Shown here one piece after another: positions 26,599 to 44,982 of a stretch of DNA of 64,000 bases (its first letter is position 1; every line of letters starts with the position of its first letter). The notes beneath the pieces are model-generated. The model was not told the origin of the DNA. It searched no databases and worked only from the letters and a program-made list of their open reading frames with translations. The position numbers and the translations under genes were made by a program. Origin of the DNA: Pseudomonadota bacterium. Its GTDB lineage: Bacteria; Pseudomonadota; Gammaproteobacteria; Steroidobacterales; Rariloculaceae. Where the stretch lies: assembly GCA_036337035.1 (NCBI GenBank), contig JAYZFC010000002.1, forward strand, positions 16,138-80,137. Reading direction: 5' to 3'.

Positions 26599-26606
26599 TC
26601 AAATAC

Positions 26607-27599: not shown

Positions 27600-27613
27600 T
27601 TTTTTTTCTTCCC

Positions 27614-27641
27614 TCTGTTTATTTTTAAATAATCTGTTTAT
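27614..27641. promoter_or_regulatory. Exact 9-nt direct repeat TCTGTTTAT x2 in divergent promoter region (candidate operator)
   Basis: TCTGTTTAT occurs at 27614-27622 and 27633-27641 (19 nt start to start), between dctP and the (GM)n gene. TATAAT at 27671-27676 and GGAG at 27709-27712 precede ATG 27721. Confidence 0.25.
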
Positions 27642-27720
27642 ACTAGAAACTAACTTTGATATTACCTTTGTATAATTATAACAAATATATTTAATATTAT
27701 TCGAAATTGGAGCAATAATT

Positions 27721-28113: not shown

Positions 28114-28114
28114 A

Positions 28115-29776
28115 ATGCAGAAACAATGGTCTTCTGTAATTCTATTTTCAGCATATCTGATAGGATGCTCTGGTAATAATGATCTTAATTCGTTAAATAT
28201 AGAAGATAAACCTAATAAACCAAACATACTAATAATTGTTGCTGATGACATAGGTTTTACAGATATTGGCTCTTTTGGTAGTGAAATTAATACTCCCAAT
28301 CTAGATAGATTGGCTCTTGAAGGAGTTCGCCTTAATAATCTTCATGCAAATTCCTCCTGTCAGCCTATGAGAGCAATGCTAATGACAGGAATGAGCCCTA
28401 GCTCAGTAATTCAGAATGGTCCACGGCTTCCCCGTTCAGGAGAAAGGGGTAACTGGATAAAACCAGAAGTTCCTATGCTTCAAGAAATGCTTAAACATGA
28501 AGGCTATTCAACTTATATGGCAGGTAAATGGGATCTTGGACCGCTTCCTGGGCATACCCCAATATCAAGAGGGTTTGATAGATATTTCACACAACTAAAT
28601 GGTTCAGCTAACTACTTTCCTGCACCGCTTCTATCTGAGGATGCAATGTACGAAGAAGATGGAATATCATTAGATTTCAAAGATTTACCAGATGACTTTT
28701 ATGCTACAAAACACTATACAGATAAGATGATTGAGTATCTTGAATCTCATAACCAAGATTCTCCATGGTTTGCTTTCGTTCCATATACAGCACCACATTG
28801 GCCGCTTATGTTGCCAGAAGACTGGTTAGATCGCTACAAAGGACAATATGAAGAAGGTTATGATGTACTTAGAAAAGAAAGATTTAAAAAGGCTACTGAA
28901 CTTGGCGTGCTCCCAAAAAATGCAAATCTTAATTCCTATAAGCCCACGGCTACTCTATGGAATGACTTAAGTATGGATGAAAAAATGAAGCTATCTAGAG
29001 CCCAAGAAATATTTTCTGGTATGGTTGAATACATGGACATGAGTATTGGAAGAATTATTCAAACTTTAGAATCAACAAATCAACTAGAAGATACTATTAT
29101 TATCTATACTGCAGATCATGGAGCATCTAGAGCAGATTATGCATTAAGCACAAACTTAAATCCCTATGACTCAAAAAATCTAGGCGGGCCGAGAATACCA
29201 TGGGATAAAATAAATAATAATATTGAAAACTTTGGATATAGTGATTCTTTTATTGATAGAGGCTTAGGATTTGCCACAGCAGCAACTGCACCATTTAAAG
29301 GTAGTAAGTCATTCTTAGATGAAGGTGGTTTGAGGGCTGCTGCATTTATCAGGTATCCTAAAGAAATTAAGGGTGGTGAAGTTGACTCTACCTTCCTAAC
29401 TATGATGGATTTTTTTCCAACATTTATAGATATAACTGACTCAAATTTTTTAAGTGAAGAGGATTATCAAGCACTTAAAGGAGATTCATTTTGGAAGTAT
29501 ATTACAAAACAAGCTAGCTCCTTCAGAGATGAAGATTTCTCAGCAGGATGGATCAGAGGTAATGATGCTCCAGCCGAAGGCCAAAATAATTTTGGTGGTG
29601 CATTAATCAAAGGTAAGTATAAGATTATTAATATGCCACAAGAAAGATTAGGGTCATATACAGAATGGAGACTTTATAATCTAGATGAAGATCCAGGTGA
29701 ACATAATGATCTGGCTAAAAATTATCCAAATATTGTTAACGATCTAGTAAATACGCTTCAATCAGACTGGCCTTAA
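28115..29776 (+). CDS. Lipoprotein type I sulfatase
   Basis: 553 aa. Lipobox LIGC. VADDIGFTDIGSFGS. Formylglycine motif CQPMRAMLMTG. GKWDLG and YTADHG. Confidence 0.85.
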   Translation: MQKQWSSVILFSAYLIGCSGNNDLNSLNIEDKPNKPNILIIVADDIGFTDIGSFGSEINTPNLDRLALEGVRLNNLHANSSCQPMRAMLMTGMSPSSVIQNGPRLPRSGERGNWIKPEVPMLQEMLKHEGYSTYMAGKWDLGPLPGHTPISRGFDRYFTQLNGSANYFPAPLLSEDAMYEEDGISLDFKDLPDDFYATKHYTDKMIEYLESHNQDSPWFAFVPYTAPHWPLMLPEDWLDRYKGQYEEGYDVLRKERFKKATELGVLPKNANLNSYKPTATLWNDLSMDEKMKLSRAQEIFSGMVEYMDMSIGRIIQTLESTNQLEDTIIIYTADHGASRADYALSTNLNPYDSKNLGGPRIPWDKINNNIENFGYSDSFIDRGLGFATAATAPFKGSKSFLDEGGLRAAAFIRYPKEIKGGEVDSTFLTMMDFFPTFIDITDSNFLSEEDYQALKGDSFWKYITKQASSFRDEDFSAGWIRGNDAPAEGQNNFGGALIKGKYKIINMPQERLGSYTEWRLYNLDEDPGEHNDLAKNYPNIVNDLVNTLQSDWP

Positions 29777-29821
29777 ATTTATTACAGGAATAAAGTTAAA
29801 AAAAATAATTTATATTTTAAA

Positions 29822-31522
29822 TTAAAGTTTTGAATGATTGATATACTCTAATAATAGATTTTTGTTTTCCCATTCTGATATTAATTGATTAAGAAGATCT
29901 GGATTCTCAGAAGCAAGATCATTATGTTCACCTGGATCTTCATCTAAGTTGAACAGCTTCCATTCATTTCCATCCCAATTAGAGCTACTTGAATTTGGTT
30001 CAGACCTTCCTCGAGCCGAAAATTTAATAATCTTATAATTTCCCATTATAAACGCCCCAAAACCTCTCGAGCTATTAACCCATCCTATACCTTGATTTTC
30101 AGATCTGACGTATTCTGATTCACCAATAATGAAAGGCCAAAAAGAATAGCCCAAAATATCATTAATTTCACGATCTTTATAATAACCAGCACCAGGATGT
30201 TCAGTGCCAGCAATATTTAAGAAAGATGGTAATATATCTATCATCCCCATAAGTTCATTGGTAACCCCTGGATCTATTAATTTTGGAAAATAAATAAATC
30301 CGGCTCCCCTTGTACCGCCTTCAGTTAAGCTGCCCTTATAAAATTTAAATGGAGCACTCGCGGCTTCGCCAAAACCAGTTCCATGATCAATAAAAGAGTT
30401 TGGTCTACCAAAATTTTCAAGGCTATTATTAAAATCCCTCCATCCACCAGTAACAGCTATTTGGTTTTCTGGATTCACGCCATAATCTGCTGCTGAACCA
30501 CCATGATCACTAACAAACATAATGACTGTATTATCTATTTCGCCAGACTCTTCAAGTAAATTAATAATTCTCCCCACACTCATATCCATATATTCAACCA
30601 TTCCAGCATAGATCTCTTGAGCTCTTGAATGTCTTGCCTGAGCTGAAGGGGTTAAGCTCTCCCAAGAAGCTGCAGTCGGCTCAAAATTCTCTAATGAGCC
30701 TCCGGGAGGAACAACGCCTAATTCTAAAGCTTTTTTGAATCGTTCAGCTCTAAGTAAATCATAACCTTCATCATACCTTCCATCATAACGATCTAACCAA
30801 TCATCTGGCAAACCTAGTGGCCAGTGTGGAGCTGTATAAGGTACATAAGCAAACCACGGAGATTCATTAGAGCTAGAAGAAATATACTCAATAATCTTAT
30901 CCGTGTAATACTCAGTTGCATAAAAATCTTCAGGTAGATCCTCATTAGCTAAAAGCTTGCCATTATCTTGATACGAATATGGGTACTGATAAATCCTCTC
31001 CTTAAAATGACTATTAGATGGTCCAGAATTTATAAATGAACGATCAAAACCTCTAGTAGAAGGATTGTGTCCTACTCTAGGCCCTAAATCCCACTTGCCT
31101 GCCATAAAAGTTTGATAACCAGCATCTTGAAGTAATTCAGGAAGTAATGCCCAATTTTCACTAACACCAATGCCTCTCTCACCTCCTCTATAAAGCTCAC
31201 CGCCAAAGATTGATTTTGTATTCTCTAATACTGCATCAGCCTCATAACTAGTCATCATTCTTGCCCGAGTAGTAAGGCAAGCTTCTGCCGTTCTAAAGTT
31301 AGTTAGCCTCATACCATTAAAAGCTAGAGTATCAAGATTAGGTGTAGAAATTTCACTGCCAAATGAACCTATATCACTATAGCCTAAATCATCTGCAACT
31401 ATAAAAAGTATATTGGGCCTTCCATCAGAGATAATATTTTGGGATTGGTTTATTTCTGGCGAACATCCAGAAAAAATTAGAGTAAAAGACACTAAAACTA
31501 TGCTTTTATAACTAGATAACAT
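29822..31522 (-). CDS. Lipoprotein type I sulfatase with non-canonical C-L-T-T-R maturation motif
   Basis: 566 aa. Lipobox FSGC. VADDLGYSDIGSFGS, GKWDLG, FVSDHG. The motif codons TGC CTT ACT ACT CGG are read on the minus strand at 31265-31279. Confidence 0.85.
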   Translation of the reverse strand: MLSSYKSIVLVSFTLIFSGCSPEINQSQNIISDGRPNILFIVADDLGYSDIGSFGSEISTPNLDTLAFNGMRLTNFRTAEACLTTRARMMTSYEADAVLENTKSIFGGELYRGGERGIGVSENWALLPELLQDAGYQTFMAGKWDLGPRVGHNPSTRGFDRSFINSGPSNSHFKERIYQYPYSYQDNGKLLANEDLPEDFYATEYYTDKIIEYISSSSNESPWFAYVPYTAPHWPLGLPDDWLDRYDGRYDEGYDLLRAERFKKALELGVVPPGGSLENFEPTAASWESLTPSAQARHSRAQEIYAGMVEYMDMSVGRIINLLEESGEIDNTVIMFVSDHGGSAADYGVNPENQIAVTGGWRDFNNSLENFGRPNSFIDHGTGFGEAASAPFKFYKGSLTEGGTRGAGFIYFPKLIDPGVTNELMGMIDILPSFLNIAGTEHPGAGYYKDREINDILGYSFWPFIIGESEYVRSENQGIGWVNSSRGFGAFIMGNYKIIKFSARGRSEPNSSSSNWDGNEWKLFNLDEDPGEHNDLASENPDLLNQLISEWENKNLLLEYINHSKL

Positions 31523-31567: not shown

Positions 31568-33772
31568 TTAATAACGAAAAGTCTTACTATATTTAATAGA
31601 AAACTGGGAATAAGTAGAATTAAATCTTGAAAAATTATCGAGTGTATTAGCGTTATGGTCAAAAACAAGGTAAAGATTTTCGCCAGCTTCTCGATTGAAT
31701 CTTAACCTTGTATTGAAACCTACATTAGATGATGTATTGTCATACTGTAATGAAGTATATAAATAAAGTCTATTTGTAAAATTATAGTTTGATGATATTT
31801 GAACTAATCGCGTTGTAAAATTACCATTGGGTAAATCAACATCATAGTTTTTTATACTACTAGATAAGAAAAACTTATTACTAGGTCTCCACCTAAGAGT
31901 TGCCTCTAAATCATTTCTTGTTCCATTATAGAATCCGCCTCCTTTTACAACTATCTTTGGAGAAAAGTTGCTGTTTTGAGAAAAGTCAGCTTCTATCTGC
32001 CACTCATCATAGCTGTGAGAACCAATTGGTACAATGACGCCTTTTGAAACCTCAAAAGGTTCAGTAAGAACTTCTGTAATTTTATTAAAAGCCACGCTGT
32101 AATTGTGACCAGATCTAGTAATTAATCTGATTGGTCTTATAAAACCATAATAACTTTCTAAATTACCAGTTTGGTCATTATTATGTGATTGAGTACTAAT
32201 AAACAACTCAGCACTTCTTATCCAAGGATGATTATCAAAATTCCTTCGATAACCACTCCACCACCTTACCCTTTTAAAGTCTTTTCGATTAACAAAGCCA
32301 AGAGCTGGGTTGTAGTTTTTTTCTACTACCTCATACTCAATTTTTCCTCTTATACCCTCTTCACCCTGAATTGCAAAGGTTACACCAAGTGTATCTTGAT
32401 CTTGATCTACTCCTGGAGTATCTGTTGCTGTGTACCATATATCCCCTTCAACCCTTTTAGAAGGATAAATAGATGTATTTCTATATCTAAAATCAAGTCC
32501 AGCTACTTTGTTATCTAAATTAGATCTTGGATTACCACTAGTAAATAATAACCCTATATTTGACTCATCTAAAACATTCGCCATAACTCTTGCTACAAAA
32601 AGATCTGACTTATCAAGTGATTGATGACTGTCTTGTTGAACACCAAGCACTCCAATGTTCAAACGGCCAGATCTACCCGTAAGCTTTAAACCTGAGTTGA
32701 TATCTATTGGCTGACCGGCAGCACTTAAACCAATTCTTCTTGTAAAAAAAGGATTTGCATTTCTATTCCACTGGTCATAATTGGCAAAGCTAAAAATATC
32801 CATATCTTGTAGAAAGAAGTTTCTTTTTTCAGGAAAAAAAAGTGAAAAACGGGTGAGATTAAGTTGTCGATCATCCACCTCAGTATCTGAAAAATCAGTA
32901 TTTAGCGTTAATACACCTGTCAATGTTGGATTAAACTTATAAAAAATATCTGCTGATGGCTCAACTGAACTTTCATTTTTGTTCTTAGCAAAATCCTTAT
33001 TTTGTTTTAAAGAAACAGAAGGAATAATATCTAATCCTAAACCTTGATTAATATCATTGAAGCCTTTAACAACACCAAAGCTATCTAAATTTGCATTGCG
33101 GTCAAATTCACTCCAAAAAACTCTCTCATTCTTTCGCCTAATTAATCTAACGAAATTAAAACCCCAATCAGGGTTACTAGGATCAAAATTGATAGATTTA
33201 AAAGGTATAGCTATTTCTGCAGACCAGCCCCATTCTGTTATTTGTGATTGAGCATACCAAATACCATTCCAGTTACTATTACCGGTAATTTTAGTGTCAA
33301 AAATGGATTCTTGTCTGGTACCTATTGCATTTAACCAAAAACTATAGCCAGAAGTCTTTTGATTAAAAGGATCAAGCCGAACACCTATGAGATCATCAGT
33401 AATAACGCCTGTATTGTGCGTCATTACTCTAGCAATAATTGCACTAGGATCAGAGTCTTCTAATCTAGCAGCAACATATAGAAAATCACTATCATAAGTA
33501 ACATAAAATGTAGTTTTTTCAGTTGGCTCTGATAAGTAAGCAGGGTCTACCTGAATAAAATCATCAATAATGGTTGCACTATTCCAAACATCATCGTCAA
33601 TAACACCATCAATAACTGGTGCAACCTCAGTTTTATAAATATTGGCTACCTTTAATGACTCATTTTGAGCAAAAACTGGTGAAATGAGAAAAAATAAAGT
33701 GGATAATTTAATTAATGTATTAAACTTAACAGCATAAAGTATATTTAAAAAATAACGGTGAATATGTTTCAT
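31568..33772 (-). CDS. Outer-membrane protein, CBM9-like N-terminal domain plus DUF5916-like beta-barrel (tentative)
   Basis: 734 aa. Signal ending SPVFA/Q. N-terminal VIDGVIDDDVWNSA block typical of CBM9-like modules. Alternating beta-strand pattern and C-terminal KYSKTFRY. Confidence 0.6.
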   Translation of the reverse strand: MKHIHRYFLNILYAVKFNTLIKLSTLFFLISPVFAQNESLKVANIYKTEVAPVIDGVIDDDVWNSATIIDDFIQVDPAYLSEPTEKTTFYVTYDSDFLYVAARLEDSDPSAIIARVMTHNTGVITDDLIGVRLDPFNQKTSGYSFWLNAIGTRQESIFDTKITGNSNWNGIWYAQSQITEWGWSAEIAIPFKSINFDPSNPDWGFNFVRLIRRKNERVFWSEFDRNANLDSFGVVKGFNDINQGLGLDIIPSVSLKQNKDFAKNKNESSVEPSADIFYKFNPTLTGVLTLNTDFSDTEVDDRQLNLTRFSLFFPEKRNFFLQDMDIFSFANYDQWNRNANPFFTRRIGLSAAGQPIDINSGLKLTGRSGRLNIGVLGVQQDSHQSLDKSDLFVARVMANVLDESNIGLLFTSGNPRSNLDNKVAGLDFRYRNTSIYPSKRVEGDIWYTATDTPGVDQDQDTLGVTFAIQGEEGIRGKIEYEVVEKNYNPALGFVNRKDFKRVRWWSGYRRNFDNHPWIRSAELFISTQSHNNDQTGNLESYYGFIRPIRLITRSGHNYSVAFNKITEVLTEPFEVSKGVIVPIGSHSYDEWQIEADFSQNSNFSPKIVVKGGGFYNGTRNDLEATLRWRPSNKFFLSSSIKNYDVDLPNGNFTTRLVQISSNYNFTNRLYLYTSLQYDNTSSNVGFNTRLRFNREAGENLYLVFDHNANTLDNFSRFNSTYSQFSIKYSKTFRY

Positions 33773-36700
33773 AAAAATAAAATAGTATATTTTGGTGTAA
33801 TTTCCTGCTTCATTTTATCAGGTTTTGCTGCGCTATTGTACCAAACTGCATGGATGAGGCAATTCTCTGTTATCTTTGGTACTTCAGAATTAGCTGTTGC
33901 AACTATTCTTTCAGCCTATATGGCAGGACTTGCTCTAGGCGCGGAAATTGCAGGTCGATATGTTGAAAAAATAAGAAGACCTATTTTATTCTATGGCATT
34001 CTTGAAGCAGCAATAGCTATCAGTGCACTATGCGTTCCATTCTTAATGGGCTTAGCAAGTTTATTATATATTAATTTTCTGGGTGATCAGCCAGCACCAG
34101 GTGATGCAAGCGGTCTTGGTCAATCAATATTTTATCTTGTAGTCGCTTTTTTAGTTCTAATTATTCCAACAGGCTGTATGGGTGCAACTCTACCTTTGCT
34201 AACAAAATATGTAGTAAGAAGTGAAGATCAAATTGGACCAAGAGTTGGCATGCTGTATGCCATGAACACGGCTGGAGCAATTGGCGGAACAACTACCGCT
34301 GGATTTTTATTGCTTCCTTTAATTGGCTTATCAGGAACAATATGGGTTGGTGTAGGAATTAATTTTTTAGTTTTTCTTATAGCAGCAGCAATTGCTAGAG
34401 AAATAAAAACGTCAACTGAAGAAAAAATTATAGAGCCAATAAAGAATAATACTAATAATATCTTTACTGATGCACCAAAATATAAGTGGATTTTACCTCT
34501 AATGTTGCTATCTGGCATGAATACTTTTACTTATGAAGTATTATGGACAAGATTATTAGGCCATATACTAGGAGGAAGCGTTGCTGCATTTTCAACTATG
34601 TTAGCCAGCTTCCTTTCAGGCATAGCAATTGGTAGCGCTATTGCATCTAGATTTTCAAAAATAAGAGAAAATTCGGTAAAAGTATTTATTTTTGTTCAAT
34701 GTGCTATAGCAATAACCTCTATCTTTGTTTATCAATACTTTGATTATCTTAATCCAGGTATGGGGCTTAATAGCAATATTATTATCGCATTTAGTATTTT
34801 AATGCCGGCTACTTTATTTATTGGGGCTACTTTTCCACTAGCTGTCAGAATGCTAGCTGACAATGAGAGAGTGGCAGCTCAAGCCTCTGCAAAGGTTTAT
34901 GCATGGAATACTTTTGGAGCCATCGCAGGTGCTGCAATAGCAGGGTTTTTCTTGATCCCATTACTTAAATATGAGGGCGCAATAAAGTTAGCAGTTAGTA
35001 TCAATTTATTTATTGCTCTACTTACTTCTCTTATTATTCTTAAAGAAAAAAGATTATTAACCTCATCTATAGGTTTTATTTTTCTAATTTCTTTATTTTT
35101 ATATAGACCAGATATGCCTGAAAATATTCTTAGAGCATCTTCAATTGTAGATAGAAGTGAAGGAGAAATTATCTATTATGATGTTGGCAGATCTGCTACG
35201 GTTATTGTTTTTGAAGAGGATGGTTTTTTAAACCTTAGAACAAATGGTTTGCCTGAAGCAGGTACTAATTTAAAAGGATCGCCACCATCAAAAAATAGTC
35301 AACAACTTCTAGCTACATTACCAGTATTAGCAAGACCTAATACATCTGAGATGTTAATAATTGGTTTTGGAGCTGGTGTTGCTGTTGAAGGTGTTCCATC
35401 TACTGTAAATAATATTGATGTTATTGAACTAGAGCCAAAGGTAATTGAGGCAAATAAAATTATTGGTAATAGCAGAGCCATAGACCCACTAAAAGATGAT
35501 CGTATAAATATTATCACTAATGATGCTAGAAGTGCCCTAGCTTTAACATCAAAAAAATATGATGCAATTGTTTCACAGCCCTCTCACCCTTGGACTGCAG
35601 GAGCGTCTCATCTATATACTCGTGAATTTATGAATTTAGCTAAAGATCATCTAAATCCAGATGGTATTTTTTTACAGTGGATGAATAGTCAATTCTTAAC
35701 TGAAGATCTCTTAAAGAGCCTTTGTGCAACTATGCTTGATGTTTATAGATTTGTAAGGGTGTATCAATGGGCACCTGAAGTTTTATTCTTTATAGGGTCA
35801 CAGCAGCCAATCAATCCTGAATATAATATGAGTATCACAGGAAGACCTGTGATAGATGATCCAGTTCATTATCTTGAAAGAGGAATAGGATCTGTGGAAG
35901 ACTTAGTAATAGCACTGAATATGGATCAAGAAAATATAAAAGAGTTTTCTAACGGGGCAAAGTTATTAACTGATAATATGAATCTTATGGCTACTGAATC
36001 TGGCCAAGCACAAGAAAGAGGAAAGGCTTTAAATTATAGAGATCTAGAAGATTTATTTTTACCCTATGACCCATTACTTCAAGATGAGAGCTTTCTTCAT
36101 AATAATTTTCCTATTGATCTAGAATTCTCCTATATTGCAGAAAGACTAGAAAACACTGGATTTAGGCAAAGAGCAATTACTTTAGGTAATGCTTTAGAAG
36201 CAAAAAATCTAAGTCAATCTTTGCTAGTAATTGCATTAGGTATGCAAAGACAAGGTCAAATAGAAGAATCTCAAAATCTACTAAGAAGATCATTAGAGGC
36301 AGATCCAACAAATGAACAAGCTCGCTTTAATATAGTTAAGCCATGGTTAGATAAAATAAATGATCCAGATACGCCAGATTATATAAAAGAAACTGCTAGT
36401 CAAATCAGAGGTTCAGCTGCAGCTGTTATAAAAGGATGGGAAGCTGTTTTACAAGAAAATTATAATTTATTGGTGGATTCAGATGAATTGATTGCAACTA
36501 CCAAAATAACTGACCAGTGGTATCTTGAATCAGTTAAGCTAAGAGCTGATTGGAGGATAAAAGTTAACAATCCTGAATACCAACCAGATCTTGCTAGAGA
36601 AGCAAGAAGAATCATTGATAATGCTATAGCAATTATTGATGATACAGAGCTTTATGGCTTAAGAATTTCAGCTGCTTATGTAGCTGAAGATATACCAGAA

Positions 36701-36943
36701 ATACTAGAGACTTCAAGAAGGTTAATTTATATTATCAACGGTGAAATTAATCTAGTAAAAGATGGCCTGTATAATATTACTACTGAAATAATTGATCGAA
36801 AAATTATTCAAATTGAAGCGCTTAAAATTGTTTTAAATGAAATGATAATAAATCAAGATGTTGATACATATGATATTGATAGCATAACGAATAATTTAGA
36901 TAATATTCTAGAAGAGCTTATAGATCTTAAGCTAATAGTTTAA
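33758..36943 (+). CDS. Fused polytopic-membrane / spermidine-synthase-like (class I SAM-fold) / TPR-like protein
   Basis: 1061 aa. N-terminal ~450 aa has many TM segments (SGFAALLYQTAWMRQFSVIFGTS). The middle has IGFGAGVAVEG, VIELEPKV, ITNDARSAL and SQPSHPW. The C-terminal ~350 aa is helical-repeat-like. GTG 33758 or ATG 33764 is the start. Confidence 0.7.
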   Translation: MNMFHKNKIVYFGVISCFILSGFAALLYQTAWMRQFSVIFGTSELAVATILSAYMAGLALGAEIAGRYVEKIRRPILFYGILEAAIAISALCVPFLMGLASLLYINFLGDQPAPGDASGLGQSIFYLVVAFLVLIIPTGCMGATLPLLTKYVVRSEDQIGPRVGMLYAMNTAGAIGGTTTAGFLLLPLIGLSGTIWVGVGINFLVFLIAAAIAREIKTSTEEKIIEPIKNNTNNIFTDAPKYKWILPLMLLSGMNTFTYEVLWTRLLGHILGGSVAAFSTMLASFLSGIAIGSAIASRFSKIRENSVKVFIFVQCAIAITSIFVYQYFDYLNPGMGLNSNIIIAFSILMPATLFIGATFPLAVRMLADNERVAAQASAKVYAWNTFGAIAGAAIAGFFLIPLLKYEGAIKLAVSINLFIALLTSLIILKEKRLLTSSIGFIFLISLFLYRPDMPENILRASSIVDRSEGEIIYYDVGRSATVIVFEEDGFLNLRTNGLPEAGTNLKGSPPSKNSQQLLATLPVLARPNTSEMLIIGFGAGVAVEGVPSTVNNIDVIELEPKVIEANKIIGNSRAIDPLKDDRINIITNDARSALALTSKKYDAIVSQPSHPWTAGASHLYTREFMNLAKDHLNPDGIFLQWMNSQFLTEDLLKSLCATMLDVYRFVRVYQWAPEVLFFIGSQQPINPEYNMSITGRPVIDDPVHYLERGIGSVEDLVIALNMDQENIKEFSNGAKLLTDNMNLMATESGQAQERGKALNYRDLEDLFLPYDPLLQDESFLHNNFPIDLEFSYIAERLENTGFRQRAITLGNALEAKNLSQSLLVIALGMQRQGQIEESQNLLRRSLEADPTNEQARFNIVKPWLDKINDPDTPDYIKETASQIRGSAAAVIKGWEAVLQENYNLLVDSDELIATTKITDQWYLESVKLRADWRIKVNNPEYQPDLAREARRIIDNAIAIIDDTELYGLRISAAYVAEDIPEILETSRRLIYIINGEINLVKDGLYNITTEIIDRKIIQIEALKIVLNEMIINQDVDTYDIDSITNNLDNILEELIDLKLIV

Positions 36944-39172
36944 ATGTTTTATAAAAAACAAGTCATTAAAGATCTACTGCTAATTGGCGGAGGTCACAGC
37001 CATATAAAAGTTATAAAATCTTTTGGCATGAATCCAATACCAGGCGTTAGATTAACTTTGATTAATCCTGATATGTATTCACTTTATTCAGGTATGTTGC
37101 CTGGTATTATTTCTGGACATTATAGTTTTGATGATGCTCATATAGATCTTATTAAATTAACAAGTTATTCAAATTGTAGGTTTATAAAAGGCAAAGTTAT
37201 AGGAATCCAGTCAGATAATAATAGAGTCATTATAGAAGGCCGGCCTCCTTTAACTTATGACCTTCTATCGATAAATTCAGGATCTAGTTCAAACTATAAA
37301 GAAATTGAAGATATTGATAGCATTGCAATACCAGTAAAACCAATTAATAGTTTTTTATCCCAATGGAAATATATTAAAAGCAAGATTAATAATTCAAAGA
37401 AAGATAGAAATATTGCAGTAATAGGAGGTGGAGCTGGAGGAGTAGAAATTATAACCGCAATGAGACATTCTTTAGGTGAAAAGAACAACCTAACTTTAAT
37501 TACAAAAGAAAATAAAATCCTTTCAGGTTTCCCAAAAAAAACAATTAATTATTTTGAGGATCACTTAAAAAAAAATAGCATTGAATTAATTAAAAATATA
37601 GAAGTAATAAAAATAACCAAAGGAAAGGTTATTAGTAAAAAAGAAGAAGAGTTTCTATTTGATGATATTTTTCTGGTAGCACAGACTGCTGGTCCTCAAT
37701 GGCTTAAGGAATCTAATTTAGACCTAAATGATGAAGGCTTCTTACTAGTTAATAATAAACTTCAATCATTAACAAAGGAAAATATTTTTGGATCAGGAGA
37801 TATTATAAAGTTTGATAAATATAATCTTAAGAAAGCAGGAGTCTATGCTGTAAGACAGGGCGATACATTAAATAAAAATATTAGAAACTTCTTTAAAAAA
37901 AGAAATTTAAATAAATACAAGCCACAAAAAAACTTTTTATCGATTATCACAATGGGGGGTAAGAATGCTGTTGTATCTAAATACTCTCTATCATTCAAAG
38001 GAAAATGGGTATGGCATTGGAAAAATTATATTGATAAGAATTTTATTTCCAAATTTACCAACCTTTCTCTTATTGAGATGAAAAGTGATGAAAAAATTCC
38101 AAAGATATTTCTTACTGAGGAGGTTAAAAAGCTAAATGATGATATGAGATGTGGCGGTTGCGGTGCTAAAGCTGCTAAAGAAATACTTAATTCAGCACTT
38201 GATGGCCTAAATATTAAAAAAAGGAATGATGTTGTGATAGGTCTCGATAATCCTGATGATGCCTCAATTATAAAAACACCAAAAGGAAAATTATCTACTA
38301 TTTCCTTAGATTTCTTTCCTCCTATGATCTCAGATCCATACTTATTTGGAAAAATAACTGCTCACCACTGTTTAAGTGATCTTTACGCAATGGGTGCTGA
38401 ACCTCAATCAGCCATGGCAATTGCTTGCCTTCCTTTGTGGCCAGAGCACAAGATCTCTGAAGAACTAAAATCTATGTTATTAGGATCTATAGAAATATTT
38501 AATGAAGAAAATACTCAATTAGTTGGAGGTCATACAAGTGAAGCAAATGAGTGTATATATGGCTTTTCTGTTACTGGTTTAATTGATAAAGATGAGATTT
38601 TAGCTAAATCTAAATTAAAGAAAGGGGATATTTTAGTTTTAACTAAAGCTATTGGAACTGGAACTATCCTTGCAGCTAATATGAGAGCAAAAGCAAAAGG
38701 GTTATGGGTTGATAAAGCAATAGAATCTATGTTGATCTCAAACAAAAAGTCAGTTGAAATAATTAAGAAATATGGTGGTACTGCTTGTACTGATATTACT
38801 GGCTTTGGTTTAATTGGTCACTTACTAGAAATGCTTGAAAAAAATCAACTAACAGCTAATATTAATCTTGAAAATATTCCAATATTAGATGGAGCAGATG
38901 AAACTATTTCTAAAAAAATTATCTCAACATTACAAGATAAGAATGAAAAATTTTCTAGATATATAAAAAATTGTTCTAAATTTAATAAATCACCAAATTA
39001 CAAATTACTTTTTGATCCACAAACAGCTGGTGGGATGTTAGCTGGAATTCCAAAAGATCATGTTGAAGACTGCTTAAACGATTTAACTAAAAATAACTAC
39101 ATAAATGCTAGAAAAATTGGAACCGTTGAAGAACAGACAAAAGTAAAAGAAAAAATATGTATTATAAAATAA
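36944..39172 (+). CDS. selD: Bifunctional FAD-dependent pyridine-nucleotide-disulfide-type oxidoreductase :: selenide, water dikinase
   Basis: 742 aa. N-terminal Rossmann motifs LLLIGGGHSH and IAVIGGGAGGVE. The C-terminal half has SelD motifs MRCGGCGAKA (Cys plus Lys), NPDDASII, SLDFFPP, LSDLYAMGA, VGGHTSE. ATG directly follows the TAA of the upstream gene. Confidence 0.85.
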   Translation: MFYKKQVIKDLLLIGGGHSHIKVIKSFGMNPIPGVRLTLINPDMYSLYSGMLPGIISGHYSFDDAHIDLIKLTSYSNCRFIKGKVIGIQSDNNRVIIEGRPPLTYDLLSINSGSSSNYKEIEDIDSIAIPVKPINSFLSQWKYIKSKINNSKKDRNIAVIGGGAGGVEIITAMRHSLGEKNNLTLITKENKILSGFPKKTINYFEDHLKKNSIELIKNIEVIKITKGKVISKKEEEFLFDDIFLVAQTAGPQWLKESNLDLNDEGFLLVNNKLQSLTKENIFGSGDIIKFDKYNLKKAGVYAVRQGDTLNKNIRNFFKKRNLNKYKPQKNFLSIITMGGKNAVVSKYSLSFKGKWVWHWKNYIDKNFISKFTNLSLIEMKSDEKIPKIFLTEEVKKLNDDMRCGGCGAKAAKEILNSALDGLNIKKRNDVVIGLDNPDDASIIKTPKGKLSTISLDFFPPMISDPYLFGKITAHHCLSDLYAMGAEPQSAMAIACLPLWPEHKISEELKSMLLGSIEIFNEENTQLVGGHTSEANECIYGFSVTGLIDKDEILAKSKLKKGDILVLTKAIGTGTILAANMRAKAKGLWVDKAIESMLISNKKSVEIIKKYGGTACTDITGFGLIGHLLEMLEKNQLTANINLENIPILDGADETISKKIISTLQDKNEKFSRYIKNCSKFNKSPNYKLLFDPQTAGGMLAGIPKDHVEDCLNDLTKNNYINARKIGTVEEQTKVKEKICIIK

Positions 39173-39176: not shown

Positions 39177-39207
39177 ATCCGCCCTAATTAAAAAAACTAG
39201 GGCGGAT
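39177..39207. terminator. Bidirectional intrinsic terminator hairpin
   Basis: Perfect 10-bp stem ATCCGCCCTA (39177-39186) / TAGGGCGGAT (39198-39207). It is flanked by an A-run on one side and a T/A-rich tract on the other, between convergent genes. It is the only GC-rich hairpin I saw in an intergenic gap. Confidence 0.75.
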
Positions 39208-39232: not shown

Positions 39233-41845
39233 CTAATCAAAGTACCGTTGGTATCTAACAAAAGACTCGCTTGGTCTATTCAGATTAACAGCTGCATTAC
39301 CATTACCAGTAGAAAAAGAGCCATTAGAAGAATAAACTTCATTCGTAGCATTTCTAATACCAAAGGTAAGTGACCAATCTTCAGCCGCGCTGTTATATGT
39401 AGTGTTAAAGTTAACAACCCTATAAGCATCTTCTCTCATTAACATATGAGGTTCAAACTTAAATCTTTGAGCATCCATATACATATAATCAAGTCGAGAA
39501 GTAATATTACCACCTGAAACTAAAGGAATACGATGAGTTATACCAAACGTATAATTATTTTCAGGAGCGTAAGGAAGTACTGCTTCTGAAAGTGGAATAC
39601 ATGTCGTAGTAGGACAATTAGTCTTTGATACTAATGGTGTTGAAAGAGTGCTATCTGTATAACCCGGAGCATACCACAGGTATGTACCTGATTGCATAGC
39701 ATTACCAGCTAGCGAATCAATCTTTGCATCTAATAGGCCGACAGTAGCATCAACACGAAGAGTATCACTCACAATCCATAATGCCTCTAATTCGGCACCA
39801 GTTAGAATACCCTTACCAACATTCTCAATACCAGTTCCCCCACTTGCTAATCCTGCTGGTCTAGCGTTGACCTGCATATCATCGTAGGTAGAATTAAATA
39901 TCGCACCATTTAATCTTAAAGCACCGCCAAATAAATCAGCTTTAGCTCCAATCTCATAATTTGTTACGTATTCAGGTCTGAAAGCTGGCATAGGTTGAGG
40001 CATCCCTTCAGGGAAACGACTAGCAAAACCACCATCACGGAACCCTTTAGCAAAAGAGCCATAGATCATAGCAGTATCACTAATATCATAAACTAAGCTC
40101 AACATAGGATCGGTTTGCGTCCATTCAGCTGTACCCACTGCTTCTTCACAAATATCAGTAACCTTATCTCTTTCAATCCTTCCATCTCCATTTGAAGTTG
40201 GACCACCTGCTGGTTGAGGATTGTTTGCATTTGCAGGGCAATAGTCCCTATGAATAGTTACATCAAATGTTTTCTTATCAGTAGTTGTTCTAAGTCCGCC
40301 AGTTAAGTGAAGCCTATCTGAAATATGATAGGTTAACTGAGTAAAAAGAGCATTAGAGGTATTATCGATGTCTCGGGCAATACGCTGGAATTTTAAACCG
40401 CCCACTCCATCGTGCACTGCGTTCATACCACTAGCTCCAGTATAAACAGTACCTGGATGATAGCTCGTGTTTTGCTTACGGCCTTGAACCACCCACAAGC
40501 CATTTACACCAATTAATGATACGACCTCAGTACCTGTTTCTTTAAACAGATATGCACCAGCTGTGTAATCCAACCTGCCATCCATTGCTTGGCCAGTCAA
40601 CTGGAACTCTTGAGATCTTCCATCTTGGTGGAAATCATCATTAATATTAGAAAATATTGGGAGTGGGCTATAATCATGATCATTCATAAAGCTTGATTTA
40701 AAGCCACGATAAGCTGTAATCGACCTTAATGTACCATATGCAGTCTCTGTTTCTACTGTTAAGGCGCTGCCATAGGTAGTTAACCAATTTTCAGGTGTAT
40801 AATCCACATTACCATTCACATCATAATAAATGGCACCTGTTTCATAAACATCTACACCAGGATTATTTGCTTCACCATAACAAAGTTTGTTTGTGTTTCT
40901 TCCCTCTGCTGTTGCACAAGCTGCAACTCCTGAAAAAGATGCGCCGCCCATAGGTGTTGAAACATTCCACCAGTTACCTTGCATCAAGACAGAAACAAAT
41001 TCGCCTGTCGTAGTACCATCAGCACTATAAAGCGCTGCTGGAACTAAAGGAGCTGGGGCCGCCTTATTATGAGACCAATCTCCAGTAAGATTAACTCTTA
41101 AACTATCTGAAGGAGAAAATTCTAACTGGGCACGAACTGCCGAAGTATTATCATCGCCTAACCAAAGATTATCATAACTAGTAGCCTTAACATAACCGCC
41201 TCTAGTTCTTTGCATGATAGAAACCCTGGCTGCTAAGTCATCTACGGCTTCTATAGGTAGATTAAATGAAGCTCTAAGATTGCTATAACTGTTTTCACCA
41301 AATGAAATACTCACTTTTGATTCATAAGCGTCAGGATTAGGTCTTTTAGTCACTAAGTTAACTGCTCCAGCTAAAGTGTTCCTTCCAAAAAGCGTTCCCT
41401 GCGGGCCTCTTAAAACCTCTGCTCTTTCTAAATCAACAAGATCCATCATGCTTCCAATTGATCTAGCAACATAAACGCCATCAATGTAGATACCTACTGC
41501 TGGATCAGTGTTAATTACAAAATCTGATTGTCCAACACCACGCATAAAAATAGTTGGTGAAGCTGTTAGTCCACTTGTTTGCGATGCTGCCTCAATCATA
41601 ACATTTGGTGTTGCCTGTGCTAAATCATTAACATTCAACGCACCACGAAGATCAATCTCATCCTCTGTAAAAGCAGTAACTGCTATTGGAGTATCTTGAA
41701 GTGACTCTTCTCTTCTTCTAGCAGTAACCACTATCTCCTCAATTGCAAAAGCACCTCCCGTAGCTTGGGCAGATGCTTTATCGAAAGAAAAAAATAGTGG
41801 AAACAATACAACAGAAAAAAGAGCTGTATATCTCTTATAATTCAC
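39233..41845 (-). CDS. TonB-dependent outer-membrane receptor
   Basis: 870 aa. GTG start with AGGAGA 5 nt upstream. Signal ending DKASA/Q. Plug blocks EEIVVTARRREESLQDTPIAVTAF and VEVLRGPQGTLFGRNTLAGAVN. Long barrel. Confidence 0.9.
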   Translation of the reverse strand: MNYKRYTALFSVVLFPLFFSFDKASAQATGGAFAIEEIVVTARRREESLQDTPIAVTAFTEDEIDLRGALNVNDLAQATPNVMIEAASQTSGLTASPTIFMRGVGQSDFVINTDPAVGIYIDGVYVARSIGSMMDLVDLERAEVLRGPQGTLFGRNTLAGAVNLVTKRPNPDAYESKVSISFGENSYSNLRASFNLPIEAVDDLAARVSIMQRTRGGYVKATSYDNLWLGDDNTSAVRAQLEFSPSDSLRVNLTGDWSHNKAAPAPLVPAALYSADGTTTGEFVSVLMQGNWWNVSTPMGGASFSGVAACATAEGRNTNKLCYGEANNPGVDVYETGAIYYDVNGNVDYTPENWLTTYGSALTVETETAYGTLRSITAYRGFKSSFMNDHDYSPLPIFSNINDDFHQDGRSQEFQLTGQAMDGRLDYTAGAYLFKETGTEVVSLIGVNGLWVVQGRKQNTSYHPGTVYTGASGMNAVHDGVGGLKFQRIARDIDNTSNALFTQLTYHISDRLHLTGGLRTTTDKKTFDVTIHRDYCPANANNPQPAGGPTSNGDGRIERDKVTDICEEAVGTAEWTQTDPMLSLVYDISDTAMIYGSFAKGFRDGGFASRFPEGMPQPMPAFRPEYVTNYEIGAKADLFGGALRLNGAIFNSTYDDMQVNARPAGLASGGTGIENVGKGILTGAELEALWIVSDTLRVDATVGLLDAKIDSLAGNAMQSGTYLWYAPGYTDSTLSTPLVSKTNCPTTTCIPLSEAVLPYAPENNYTFGITHRIPLVSGGNITSRLDYMYMDAQRFKFEPHMLMREDAYRVVNFNTTYNSAAEDWSLTFGIRNATNEVYSSNGSFSTGNGNAAVNLNRPSESFVRYQRYFD

Positions 41846-41951: not shown

Positions 41952-42045
41952 TGGCGGAGGTGGATGGGAATCGAACCCACCACCCGATATTATTCAAGTC
42001 ACTGGTTTTGAAGACCAGGAGAGTCACCAGACTCCATTCACCTCC
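41952..42045 (-). tRNA. selC: tRNA-Sec (anticodon UCA)
   Basis: Minus-strand read: GGAGGTGAATGGAGTCTGGTGACTCTCCTGGTCTTCAAAACCAGTGACTTGAATAATATCGGGTGGTGGGTTCGATTCCCATCCACCTCCGCCA. 6-bp D-stem (GGAGTC/GACTCT) with a 4-nt loop. Anticodon arm CTGGT-CTTCAAA-ACCAG gives UCA. Long variable arm. 94 nt, 13 nt downstream of selB. Confidence 0.9.
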
Positions 42046-42058
42046 TCATTTTTAAAAA

Positions 42059-43594
42059 TTAAAACTTATTTTTGAGCCTTCTATAATCACCAAATCTTTC
42101 TGTTATACCAGTAGCGTCAAAATGCTCCATTATTGGTATCACTGATTTTCTAGAACTCGCTAATAAGTCCCTAACTTGAGAAATAGTAAATTTATCAGGA
42201 TATGGAAATTCTTGCTCTATAATTTTCTTTACTTTGTCTAAATTAATTCTATGAGTTAGATATTTTATTCTTCTATCATAAAGCTTTAAAGACACTAGCT
42301 TTCCTTGTTTTAGTAGCAAGCGATTCATTTGTTTGGCTATTTCGCTACCATCCAAAATATTCTCTTCAGATTCAATATTGTACTCAAGAGAAAGATATTT
42401 CTCTTCAATATTCTTAATCACTTCTAATTGATCTTTATCTAAATTAATATCTAATATGTCTTTTTTAGAGTGGTTTATTTTTTTTCTTGGTGTTAATACT
42501 TCTTTCTTAAAATCTTGTGTATCTATAATCTTAGTTATCTCACCTCCACCTATTGTTTTAGAAGGAGAAAATGATCTTATTACAAATTTTTCATGTTCAT
42601 GAGTTACAACAGGTGTATTGAAGAAAAACTTTACTAATGCTTCTTCACCTTGACTCAAAATATTTTTTTTACTTATTTTTATTCTAGCTGAAACATCTAA
42701 AGTACCAACTAGAACATGAACAATAGAATTATTTTTTAATCTACATGAGGGCCTTTCTAATATCTTAATCTTAGCTTCAAATGCTATAGTCTTCTTTAAA
42801 AAATTTTGTGAAGAAACGACATTGCCTCTATTTAAATTACTTATCTTTATCCCCCTAAGGTTAATTGCAACTCTTTGTCCTTTTTCTGCCTGAGGTACTT
42901 CCTTGTTATTAACATGAATACTTCTAATTGACAGCTTTTCTTCCTGTGGAAGTAAAATAACTTCACTCTTATTATCTAAATTTCCATGTCTTAAAGTACC
43001 AGTAACAATCGTTCCAAAACCCTGCTTGTGAAAAACTCTATCTATTGGAAGAAAAAAATTACTTTCAATGATTTCTTTTTTTTCAAAACTAGCGGCATCT
43101 TTAACAAGCAAGCCCTTTAAAGCATCTATTCCAGATCTGCTAATAGAAGATACTTCATGTAAATTGAAATTTTTTAAGAAAGTATCTTTCAAAAAGTTCT
43201 TAATTTTTTCTCGCTCTTTAATAATTTCATTTTTTGACAATAAATCTATTTTAGTTAAGACAACTATGCCTTTATTAATCCCTAGAACAGAAGCAATATC
43301 AAGATGTTCTATAGTTTGTGGCATGATTCCTTCATTCACTGCAATTACTAATAAAATACTACTAATCCCAGATGCCCCAGAAACCATATTTTTTATAAAA
43401 GATTCATGGCCAGGCAAATCAATTAAGTCTATAAATGTATTATTAGAATGAATATAAGCAAAGCCTGGAACAATAGAAAGCCCCCTTTCATGTTCTTCTT
43501 TTAAAAGATCTGTATCTATCCCAGTTAATGCTTTAACTAATGATGTCTTACCATGATCAACGTGGCCAAGCACACCAATTGACATATGTTTCAT
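42059..43594 (-). CDS. selB: Selenocysteine-specific translation elongation factor (short form)
   Basis: 511 aa. G-domain GHVDHGKTSL, DLPGHESF, TKID. EF-Tu-like domains II/III end near SPSKTIGGGEI (about residue 350), leaving only ~150 C-terminal residues. ATG shares one nt with the selA TGA. Confidence 0.85.
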   Translation of the reverse strand: MKHMSIGVLGHVDHGKTSLVKALTGIDTDLLKEEHERGLSIVPGFAYIHSNNTFIDLIDLPGHESFIKNMVSGASGISSILLVIAVNEGIMPQTIEHLDIASVLGINKGIVVLTKIDLLSKNEIIKEREKIKNFLKDTFLKNFNLHEVSSISRSGIDALKGLLVKDAASFEKKEIIESNFFLPIDRVFHKQGFGTIVTGTLRHGNLDNKSEVILLPQEEKLSIRSIHVNNKEVPQAEKGQRVAINLRGIKISNLNRGNVVSSQNFLKKTIAFEAKIKILERPSCRLKNNSIVHVLVGTLDVSARIKISKKNILSQGEEALVKFFFNTPVVTHEHEKFVIRSFSPSKTIGGGEITKIIDTQDFKKEVLTPRKKINHSKKDILDINLDKDQLEVIKNIEEKYLSLEYNIESEENILDGSEIAKQMNRLLLKQGKLVSLKLYDRRIKYLTHRINLDKVKKIIEQEFPYPDKFTISQVRDLLASSRKSVIPIMEHFDATGITERFGDYRRLKNKF

Positions 43595-44982
43595 CAGGAA
43601 AATATTTTCTCTAAAGCCTTGTATATATCTTGTACTTGATCCTCTCTTACTGCCCTAAGGTCAATATAAACAAAACCTGAATTAATCCTTGAAATAATTG
43701 GCGGCTCTGAATCTCTTAGCTGCTTAGCTAAATTATTAGCAGAAATTTTTAATGGCTCAAGCTTGATAACTGGTGAGGGTATTTTATTATTGGGTAGCGT
43801 ACCTCCACCAGAATAACTAAATCCATCTTCTATATAGTGTTTAATATTTTTTATATTCTTCAAAAGATCTGAAAGAAGGACTATTCTTTCTCTAACTTTA
43901 TCCTGATCTTCACAAATCATTCTTAAAGTTGGAATATCTTTTTTTGGATTATATGGGGGGAAATAAAGCCTTAAGGTCTCTGCCAGAGCAGCTAAACTCA
44001 GCTTATCAATCCTAAGAGCTCTAAGTAGAGGATTTTTTTTAATTAATGCTATTAGCTCTGCTCTACCCACCAAGATGCCAGATTGAGGGCCTCCTAATAA
44101 TTTATCCCCGCTAAAGCTAATTAAATCAACCCCTGCTTCTATACTTTTATGGATTGATGAACTAAGTCTAATATCATCATTAGAAAGTTCAACCAATGAG
44201 CCACATCCTAAATCTTCAATTGTTATTATTTCCTTATTGTGAGCTAGACTCGTAATTTCTTTAATATCAGGCTTAGAGGTGTGGCCATATAATTTATAAT
44301 TACTAGGATGAACAACTAAAATTGCCTTTGATCTTTCAGTTAATGCAGTCCTATAGTCACTAAGAGCAGTAATATTAGTTGTACCAACTTCTATCATATT
44401 AGCGCCACTTTGCTTAATGACATCAGGCATACGAAATGAGTCACCAATTTCAACTAACTCGCCTCTAGATATAACCACTTCTTGATCTTTAGCAAAAGAA
44501 TTTATCGCTAACATAAATGCTGCGGCACAATTATTTACAACAATTGCTGCCTCTGCTCCAGTTAGTTTAGTTATTAAAGACTCAACATGTTTATACCTTG
44601 AAGAGCGCTCACCTTTATCTAAACTATATTCTAAATTAGAATAGTTTCTAGCAACCTTATTCATCTCTAAAATCGCTTGATCTGCTAGGCACGCCCTACC
44701 CAGATTTGTATGCAAAATAACTCCTGTTGCATTTATTACCGGCCTAAAGCTTTTCTTTCTTTTATCTAATAATTCATCACGCAATCTATTTAAATAGTCT
44801 TGGTTATCAAAAATGGGCAAATAATATGAGCCTTCTTTAACTAATTTTCTGTAATGAGATAAATGGCTCCTCATAACATCAGCTACCTCAGAGTGAGAAA
44901 ATTCATTAGATAATCTCTTTCCTATATCTGAACTCAACCAGCTATCAATCGATGGAATTTTTCTCAAAAGTTCTTTAATCAT
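43594..44982 (-). CDS. selA: L-seryl-tRNA(Sec) selenium transferase
   Basis: 462 aa. The PLP-lysine block FSGDKLLGGPQSGI is typical of SelA. ATG overlaps the TGA of the upstream membrane-protein gene (ATGA at 44979-44982). Confidence 0.9.
   Translation of the reverse strand: MIKELLRKIPSIDSWLSSDIGKRLSNEFSHSEVADVMRSHLSHYRKLVKEGSYYLPIFDNQDYLNRLRDELLDKRKKSFRPVINATGVILHTNLGRACLADQAILEMNKVARNYSNLEYSLDKGERSSRYKHVESLITKLTGAEAAIVVNNCAAAFMLAINSFAKDQEVVISRGELVEIGDSFRMPDVIKQSGANMIEVGTTNITALSDYRTALTERSKAILVVHPSNYKLYGHTSKPDIKEITSLAHNKEIITIEDLGCGSLVELSNDDIRLSSSIHKSIEAGVDLISFSGDKLLGGPQSGILVGRAELIALIKKNPLLRALRIDKLSLAALAETLRLYFPPYNPKKDIPTLRMICEDQDKVRERIVLLSDLLKNIKNIKHYIEDGFSYSGGGTLPNNKIPSPVIKLEPLKISANNLAKQLRDSEPPIISRINSGFVYIDLRAVREDQVQDIYKALEKIFS

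Follow-up and report, generated by a model that had tools for sequence, protein, structure and literature searches.

In the 64-kb stretch of DNA analysed here (the window), the gene for an NADH-dehydrogenase-like::SelD (Ndh-SelD) fusion starts exactly where the gene for a large membrane protein with MFS and spermidine-synthase (SpdSyn) folds ends, and the question is whether this contact joins selenium activation to a membrane-embedded SAM-fold protein, as the initial annotation proposed, or is of no functional consequence. Both open reading frames and the zero-spacer junction, reading ...gtt taa ATG ttt..., are present in the sequence as that annotation had given them (Table 1).

Table 1. Features of the Ndh-SelD locus and its surroundings, in window coordinates
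Feature	Position	Strand	Basis
DUF5916/CBM9 secreted protein, divergent	31568..33772	-	Pfam
MFS/SpdSyn-fold gene	33758..36943	+	ORF 1061 aa, GTG start
taaATG junction, zero spacer, MFS/SpdSyn-fold gene then Ndh-SelD gene	36941..36946	+	sequence read
Ndh-SelD fusion gene	36944..39172	+	ORF 742 aa, ATG start
NDH-2/SQR-like FAD + NAD(P)H flavoprotein half, ~residues 1-385	36944..38098	+	TIGR03169, Pfam
SelD (selenide, water dikinase) half, ~residues 395-742	38126..39172	+	TIGR00476, PDB matches
RCGGCGAK, residues 402-409: CxxC (C403, C406) and catalytic Lys409, SelD glycine-rich loop	38147..38170	+	translation
Hairpin, 13-bp stem, G+C-rich, T runs	39177..39207		pattern scan match only
TonB-dependent receptor	39233..41845	-	Pfam Plug, TonB_dep_Rec_b-barrel
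tRNA-Sec (selC)	41952..42045	-	ARAGORN anticodon tca; Rfam RF01852 79.5 bits (gathering score 47)
SelB, Sec-specific elongation factor	42059..43594	-	TIGR00475 290.9 bits (cutoff 242)
SelA, selenocysteine synthase	43594..44982	-	TIGR00474 529 bits (cutoff 268); Pfam SelA 436 bits

The 742-aa protein has been read correctly from its motifs as a two-Rossmann flavoprotein joined to a genuine SelD. Its N-terminal half matches Pyr_redox_2 (residues 10-292) and Pyr_redox (156-228) in Pfam and carries the dinucleotide-binding motifs GGGHSH (15-20) and GGGAGG (161-166) for FAD and NAD(P)H, while AIRS (438-547) and AIRS_C (559-735) are found in the SelD half. TIGR03169 ('Nterm_to_SelD') is matched over the full model length by residues 10-371 (429 bits; cutoff 310), and TIGR00476 (selD) scores 281 bits (cutoff 125). 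The best PDB relative of the flavoprotein half is the NDH-2-like YjlD (9pxk; 4e-12), further relatives being CoA-disulfide reductase, NDH-2, SQR and FSP1. The SelD half matches the SelDs of A. aeolicus (2yye; 4e-47) and E. coli (3u0o; 2.5e-40), and C406 and K409 align with Sec/Cys13 and Lys16 of the A. aeolicus enzyme. Among 79 aligned fusions, C403 and C406 are Cys in every one, and the full CxxC[GSA]AK string is kept in 77; C710 is the only other Cys conserved throughout. All three belong to the SelD half, and the reductase half has no Cys common to the 79 sequences.

Judged by its sequence, the protein can be classified as an ordinary member of the known Ndh-SelD fusion family, an abundant and well-catalogued marine form of SelD. 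The initial annotation had rightly stated that such fusions were noted before: NADH-dehydrogenase-like (COG1252)::SelD fusions were reported by Zhang, Gladyshev and co-workers in 2006-2008 and by Mariotti et al. in 2015, and PMC4561486 calls them 'by far the most common' among SelD fusions. They account for ~40% of Cys-type SelDs in the GOS ocean metagenomes, all with the CxxC that is reported as their hallmark and that occurs in <5% of single-domain SelDs (PMC2398784). NCBI already holds a 100%-identical protein, annotated SelD. The protein shares with the family its architecture, its length (~750 aa), scores above cutoff for both models, the CxxC in the SelD loop, the Cys-type active site and a marine bacterial host with Sec machinery; nothing of substance is different, and its chromosomal position alone is lineage-specific. 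The whole SelD fold also aligns with the stand-alone enzymes (3u0o, 2yye), with catalytic Cys and Lys kept, but the fusion possesses an extra N-terminal flavoprotein of 385 aa and, three positions ahead of the catalytic Cys, another one that completes the CxxC.

The protein encoded upstream had been described as a 1061-aa membrane, spermidine-synthase-like and TPR protein. The MFS and SpdSyn parts of this description stand: Pfam places MFS_1 at residues 18-324 and Spermine_synth at 515-669, NF037959 ('fused MFS/spermidine synthase') scores 122 bits (cutoff 40), and Foldseek on an AlphaFold2 model (pLDDT 73.8) retrieves an MFS fold (NorA, TM 0.69) and a spermidine-synthase fold (TM ~0.6). For the TPR part, the C-terminal part has no Pfam TPR match at E<=0.01; residues 743-1060 are modelled as an all-helical repeat of paired 10-14-residue helices (pLDDT ~85-92), so that, as far as the predicted structure goes, 'TPR' is probably a helical-repeat resemblance only. 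The length of 1061 aa holds for the ORF from GTG 33758, but the probable start is ATG 33764, giving 1059 aa; the latter start is common to the Tara protein P0001 (97% identical) and the NCBI gene call.

This protein resembles the NF037959 fused MFS/spermidine synthases in scoring above their cutoff and in combining both folds in one chain. Compared with NF037959 and the membrane-anchored SpeE-like PRK03612 models, however, it is ~540 aa longer owing to a helical-repeat C-terminus, and the signature aminopropyltransferase residues are replaced (GFGAG, SQPSHPW). We rejected a canonical polyamine aminopropyltransferase (SpeE), because the scores lie below cutoff, far below for the SpeE equivalogs (TIGR00417, 68 vs 249.55; PRK00811, 70 vs 260) and likewise for PRK03612 (125 vs 472), and because, in an alignment with Arabidopsis SPDS1, the dcSAM loop GGGDG is replaced by GFGAG and DSSDP, with the catalytic Asp, by SQPSHP. 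Both replacements are invariant in the MFS/SpdSyn-fold family, as are Q607 and H610 in A1. Up to five paralogues of the family occur per genome.

The abutting codons at the junction are no more than chance in this genome, because same-strand genes in the window are separated by a median of 7.5 bp (34 neighbour pairs) and the coding share is ~96%; the gap is 0 bp or less in 10 of the 34 pairs. A pattern scan found no terminator-like site between the two genes. Their co-transcription is plausible but, given the median spacer, uninformative on function. Downstream, the SelD and TonB-receptor genes converge on a gap of 60 bp that contains the hairpin, which, on the pattern match, is a probable terminator common to both.

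The distribution of the adjacency bears directly on the proposed partnership. We surveyed MFS-family loci for the best 80 relatives, out of at least 578 in genomes and at least 512 in metagenomes. SelD adjoins the MFS-family gene in a single one of 79 genome loci, that of TMED78, which is the closest among these best 80 relatives (82% identity) and has the same taaATG junction at 13173-13178 on an independently assembled contig (NHEF01000013), collinear over ~18 kb on both sides. The adjacency was not found in the other 77 family loci among the best 80 relatives, nor in L165 and L166, further contigs of a 66%-identical lineage. In the next relatives of the MFS protein (66-67%) SelD's place is occupied by a TonB receptor; for instance, at L002, L003, L165 and L166 a 61%-identical receptor gene directly follows the MFS gene with a spacer of ~56 bp and no SelD. 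In the reverse direction, none of 84 Ndh-SelD loci (1.02 Mb searched) has an MFS-family relative nearby, and on Rariloculaceae chromosomes with both genes these lie ~177 kb and ~650 kb apart. The recurrent neighbours of the family are TonB receptors, DUF5916/CBM9 proteins (homologues in 7 of the 79 loci among the best 80 relatives), DUF6152-like proteins and sulfatases rather than selenium genes, and in related lineages the TonB receptor gene is conserved as the convergent neighbour of the MFS/SpdSyn-fold gene. This receptor was also considered as a selenoprotein and rejected, its ORF being uninterrupted and its signal peptide being preceded by a stop codon. The MFS/SelD contact is very probably a local by-product of tight gene packing and not a conserved partnership, and the new pairing of SelD with a membrane SAM-fold protein fails on the gene-neighbourhood comparison that the initial annotation had itself suggested, the adjacency being confined, among the best 80 relatives, to this genome and TMED78. 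In that lineage the pair is stable and probably co-transcribed, since the junction is kept between two genomes with protein identities of 71-82%.

A dedicated operon with real functional coupling would have the MFS part import a selenium species, or the SAM-fold part methylate or alkylate selenium, thereby feeding or buffering SelD. The abutting stop and start codons here and in TMED78, the terminator-free junction and the shared strand, on which the closest intergenic space upstream precedes the MFS gene, are what such an operon would look like. However, the adjacency is missing from the other 77 family loci among the best 80 relatives, as well as from L165/L166 and all 84 SelD-fusion loci, the two genes coexist far apart on the same chromosomes, the MFS family is multi-copy with neighbours that are not selenium genes, spacers of 0 bp or less are frequent in the window, and spermidine-synthase residues at the SAM/dcSAM site are replaced. 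Coupling of this kind is thus very unlikely, and we give as little credence to the capture of Ndh-SelD behind the MFS gene as a real lineage-specific operon of this genome and TMED78, with the membrane protein aiding selenium supply; if true, it could imply, for example, selenium uptake via the MFS half or a selenium-containing small molecule handled in the altered SAM-fold pocket. That the contig is chimeric at the junction through assembly or binning might be suspected from its source, a metagenome-assembled genome, from the G+C content of the SelD gene (~30%, lower than the flanks) and from the identity of SelD to its TMED78 counterpart (71%, with neighbours at 82-89%), but the same gene order, junction and collinearity in the independent TMED78 assembly leave hardly any room for such an artefact.

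The relevant context of Ndh-SelD at this locus is the Sec machinery, on which the initial annotation was silent: tRNA-Sec, SelB and SelA are encoded 2.8 kb downstream, SelB with its winged-helix and beta-barrel domains matched in Pfam. Selenophosphate is consumed by SelA. Looser linkage is seen at other Ndh-SelD loci, with tRNA-Sec and SelB 5.8 kb away at L086 and SelA and SelB adjacent at L155. Alternatively, the fusion might not be a Sec-pathway SelD at all, but a SenC-type enzyme (selenoneine/selenosugar) or a member of a separate 'fusion_not_SelD' family. Among the 84 Ndh-SelD loci, SenB (TIGR04348) is present in 31, an EgtB/SenA-like gene in 23-24, EgtD in 11 and a putative selenate ABC transporter in ~21-28; SenC of senABC clusters shares the SelD chemistry, the fused form is present in many environmental sen clusters, and the window protein aligns end to end with TIGR04369 ('fusion_not_SelD', oxidoreductase/SelD-related). 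Its 454 bits nevertheless remain below the cutoff of 700, as do those of all fusions tested (447-489 bits for seven others), and tblastn with six members per neighbour family detected no senA, senB, egtD or transporter homologues in the 64-kb window. Moreover, in the NJ tree the clade of the window protein is without sen neighbours and includes L086, and SelA, SelB and tRNA-Sec lie in cis with the fusion. The characterised SenC of V. paradoxus, in published descriptions, is without an oxidoreductase domain, unlike the fusion here. We consider a SenC-type or 'fusion_not_SelD' identity improbable.

In our opinion the locus very probably holds an ordinary Ndh-SelD that serves the Sec system in cis, with a reductase half that would keep selenium reduced and a contact to the MFS gene that is non-functional. 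The SelD half would make selenophosphate from reduced selenium and ATP, and the consumer here would be the Sec-decoding system (tRNA-Sec, SelB, SelA) 2.8 kb away. The flavoprotein half most likely draws on NAD(P)H, either to keep selenium reduced or to reduce it while it is attached to the invariant CxxC loop in the SelD half, and with such a built-in reductase the enzyme would be self-sufficient in oxic seawater. This role is suggested by domain logic together with a literature hypothesis; it is unproven, as the initial annotation had stated, and a supply of reduced selenium by this half was already proposed in print in 2008 (PMC2432076). As for its position, the SelD gene lies where related lineages have just the short convergent gap from the MFS gene to the TonB receptor, and probably it is only in the lineage shared by this genome and TMED78 that this position arose or was retained. 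The zero spacer would then reflect genome streamlining, and the two genes may well be transcribed together yet belong to separate pathways.

The locus as such matters little, since the fusion is abundant and catalogued and the proposed new pairing fails, and the function of the flavoprotein half is no more testable here than at hundreds of other loci, although the question is slightly sharpened by the comparative data. One fused enzyme serves Sec loci as well as many selenoneine (senA/senB) loci with a putative selenate ABC transporter. The conservation of Cys in the SelD half only and the occurrence of one enzyme at both kinds of loci are consistent with a built-in selenium reductase that is driven by NAD(P)H and acts ahead of whichever pathway uses the selenophosphate.

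Profile matches and alignments show that the predicted 742-aa product of selD is a true SelD of the Cys type that retains the catalytic residues and carries a two-dinucleotide-binding flavoprotein. The protein exceeds the NCBIfam cutoffs for both TIGR03169 'Nterm_to_SelD' (429 bits; cutoff 310) and the SelD equivalog TIGR00476 (281 bits; cutoff 125), while membership of TIGR04369 'fusion_not_SelD' was rejected (454 bits, under the cutoff of 700). Its C-terminal half aligns over the whole of the SelD proteins of A. aeolicus (2yye, 4e-47) and E. coli (3u0o, 2.5e-40), which places C406 and K409 at the catalytic Sec/Cys and Lys positions; the SelD loop reads RCGGCGAK. Both C403 and C406 are kept in all 79 fusion proteins collected, and the full string CxxC[GSA]AK in 77 of them. 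For the N-terminal half, the closest matches are NDH-2-like flavoproteins (YjlD 9pxk, 4e-12), CoA-disulfide reductases, NDH-2, sulfide:quinone reductase and FSP1; this half contains no cysteine that is universally conserved among the 79 proteins. The flavin-oxidoreductase::SelD fusion described in the initial annotation is hence confirmed, as is the remark that such fusions had been noted before. Hundreds of 'Ndh-SelD' fusions, all of them CxxC, make up ~40% of the Cys-type SelDs in Global Ocean Sampling data (PMC2398784), and the NADH-dehydrogenase-like fusion is 'by far the most common' SelD fusion (PMC4561486). The gene is also already annotated: a 100%-identical protein is named 'selenide, water dikinase SelD' in NCBI (GCA_002718775.1, contig PBFN01000042.1), on a contig whose genes are arranged as in the window.

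Our literature search found no published assay of the reductase half. The flavoprotein half may pass electrons from NAD(P)H via FAD to selenium on or near the CxxC loop, in which case a selenide-level substrate would be made in place and the loop would be re-reduced. This route is favoured because the reductase half lacks a conserved cysteine pair of its own, and because CxxC is universal in the fusions and reportedly rare in unfused SelDs (PMC2398784). For the details of the proposed reductase step, we see the chances as roughly even.

The initial annotation further suggested that the fusion and the membrane protein encoded just upstream might, unless their contact is coincidental, form a new pairing that couples a membrane-embedded SAM-fold enzyme to selenium activation. 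Both ORFs lie where it had placed them, and the stop and start codons are in direct contact (taaATG, 36941-36946). Nevertheless, a new functional pairing is not supported, and the locus is very probably a known fusion beside a coincidental neighbour. We searched one genome per GTDB species for the MFS/spermidine-synthase-fold family, a large one with at least 578 relatives, and examined the best 79 of these with flanks up to 10 kb, by tblastn with both fusion halves and by all-vs-all clustering. SelD occurs in just one of these 79 loci, that of 'Gammaproteobacteria bacterium TMED78', which is the closest relative (82% identity) and has the same taaATG junction. In the opposite direction, a metagenome scan together with four genome loci gave 84 Ndh-SelD loci (1.02 Mb), none of which has a relative of the membrane protein nearby. 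Among the loci examined, the adjacency is thus essentially unique to this genome, with only TMED78 sharing it; uniqueness of this kind is what the initial annotation had named as refuting its proposal. In complete Rariloculaceae chromosomes that possess both genes, these are ~177 kb (6.03-Mb chromosome) and ~650 kb (3.82-Mb chromosome) apart.

The gene order in sister lineages points the same way. In the next relatives, namely two genome loci with 66-67% identity (L002 and L003) and two JGI contigs of a 66%-identical lineage (L165 and L166), the gene directly after that of the membrane protein encodes the orthologous TonB receptor (61% identity), with a spacer of ~56 bp and no SelD. The selD gene of the window therefore sits in what is the ordinary convergent gap of these lineages, whether by gain or by loss. 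The zero spacer, which had been read as a sign of co-transcription, carries no information, since short gaps are common here: the 34 same-strand gene pairs of the window have a median gap of 7.5 bp, with 19 gaps of 10 bp or less and 10 of 0 bp or less, and ~96% of the window is coding. A promoter scan detected a sigma-70-like site (10/12) at 36876-36904, within the membrane protein gene, 40 nt upstream of the start codon of selD; as the region holds 36 promoter-type sites against 40.5 expected from shuffling, i.e. not above expectation, this site is evidence neither way. The fusion shares 71% amino acid identity with its TMED78 counterpart (L001, 13176-15404) while the flanking genes share 82-89%, and of all 2-kb bins in the window, the one in which it lies has the lowest G+C (0.297, 36001-38000). 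Both features would fit a later arrival of selD at this site.

The membrane and spermidine-synthase-like character that had been assigned to the 1061-aa protein is upheld by NF037959 'fused MFS/spermidine synthase' (122 bits; cutoff 40) in addition to its Pfam domains. Its proposed TPR part has no match to Pfam TPR models, although residues 743-1060, at the C-terminal end, form an all-helical repeat in the AlphaFold2 model (mean pLDDT 73.8). Foldseek matches this model to NorA-type MFS transporters (TM 0.69) and spermidine synthases (TM ~0.6). A hydropathy scan, like the model, points to 13 helices; should the thirteenth (432-448) cross the membrane, the spermidine-synthase-like and helical-repeat parts would be periplasmic. 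By its sequence, the spermidine-synthase-like domain is no canonical aminopropyltransferase: the protein falls far under all SpeE equivalog cutoffs, and GGGDG and DSSDP of Arabidopsis SPDS1 are replaced by GFGAG and SQPSHP, respectively. The whole family shares Q607, H610 and the SQPSHPWTAGASHLYTREF around them without variation. Translation probably begins at ATG 33764, the start used both in a 97%-identical Tara protein and by the NCBI gene call. From this ATG or GTG 33758, the 5' end overlaps by 9-15 nt that of a divergent DUF5916/CBM9 gene (start 33772, minus strand), so the promoter of each must lie inside the other gene; the overlap is also seen in TMED78 (-20 nt).

Nothing ties this protein to selenium, and a literature search on the fused MFS/spermidine-synthase family returned nothing relevant. 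Genomes can contain several members of the family, up to five paralogues, and four loci (L021, L024, L027 and L032) have two of them in tandem. Its recurrent neighbours among the best 79 of at least 578 relatives are TonB receptors (most often), DUF5916/CBM9, DUF6152-like genes and sulfatases (23 loci), not selenium genes. The window is itself rich in sulfatases at 19061-31522: three tandem ~480-aa paralogues (19061-23420), at least the last of which clusters with sulfatases, and two sulfatases (28115-29776 and 29822-31522) flank a DctP/Q/M TRAP transporter (24761-27749).

A feature on which the initial annotation was silent is the selenocysteine (Sec) machinery that the predicted genes show in cis with selD, whereby a consumer of selenophosphate is encoded 2.8 kb from it (see table). 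The Sec-decoding module is complete (tRNA-Sec, selB and selA, together with an acyltransferase gene). It is missing at the syntenic position in TMED78, where synteny stops right after the TonB receptor. Similarly loose linkage is found elsewhere: in L086, a fusion gene of 48% identity is separated by 5.8 kb from tRNA-Sec and SelB, and divergent SelA and SelB genes adjoin the fusion gene in L155.

Features of the selD region and the neighbouring Sec module
Feature	Position	Strand	Basis or remark
MFS/spermidine-synthase-fold ORF, 1061 aa	33758..36943	+	Pfam MFS_1 + Spermine_synth
Ndh-SelD fusion ORF, 742 aa	36944..39172	+	ORF read; N half Pfam Pyr_redox_2 + Pyr_redox, C half AIRS + AIRS_C
Hairpin, 13-bp stem	39177-39207		between selD and TonB receptor gene
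TonB-dependent receptor	39233..41845	-	convergent with selD; between selD and tRNA-Sec
tRNA-Sec (selC)	41952..42045	-	ARAGORN; Rfam 79.5 bits
SelB	42059..43594	-	TIGR00475, 291 bits (cutoff 242)
SelA	43594..44982	-	TIGR00474, 529 bits (cutoff 268)
TMEM164-related membrane acyltransferase	beyond SelA, in module 41952-45704	-	stop overlaps selA start by 4 nt

Several other candidates for a selenium function were rejected. The TonB receptor does not qualify as one of the recently named selenoprotein TonB receptors (22-45 bits against cutoffs of 800-850; no in-frame TGA). The class-V aminotransferase at 45843-47036 is not a selenium donor of the NifS/selenocysteine-lyase type, as cysteine desulfurases score only 26-41 bits; BhcA-like aspartate-glyoxylate aminotransferases are closest (407 bits, under cutoff). 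All selenoprotein candidates from TGA-interrupted ORFs across the whole window lie inside longer ORFs of another frame.

In the window's own Ndh-SelD clade, composed of Rariloculaceae and marine relatives, an 803-aa xanthine-dehydrogenase-family molybdopterin-binding protein is encoded just upstream of selD (L080-L082, L085 and L086), sometimes beside DUF6152 and AhpC/DsbD_N genes. Its position may recall the selenium-dependent molybdenum hydroxylase trait, or may be plain synteny.

Genes of the selenoneine (sen) cluster occur neither in the 64-kb window nor beside this clade. The NCBIfam models do not separate Sec-type from sen-type fusions, all of which score alike; only a neighbour-joining tree with neighbour flags does so. 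The sen literature searched describes SenC without an oxidoreductase domain, and we found no mention of one. Clusters of selenoneine type with Ndh-SelD are seen in the metagenome loci (L084-L163), for instance in L125, L134, L156 and L162. Of the 84 Ndh-SelD loci, 21-28 carry a 'putative selenate' ABC transporter, whose binding protein (TIGR04553) occurs in 21, accompanied by its permease and ATPase. Neighbour clustering places SenB (TIGR04348, 404 bits) in 31 of the 84, EgtB/SenA-like genes in 23-24 and EgtD in 11, and this recurrence indicates that the fused enzyme is frequently the SelD of selenoneine clusters.
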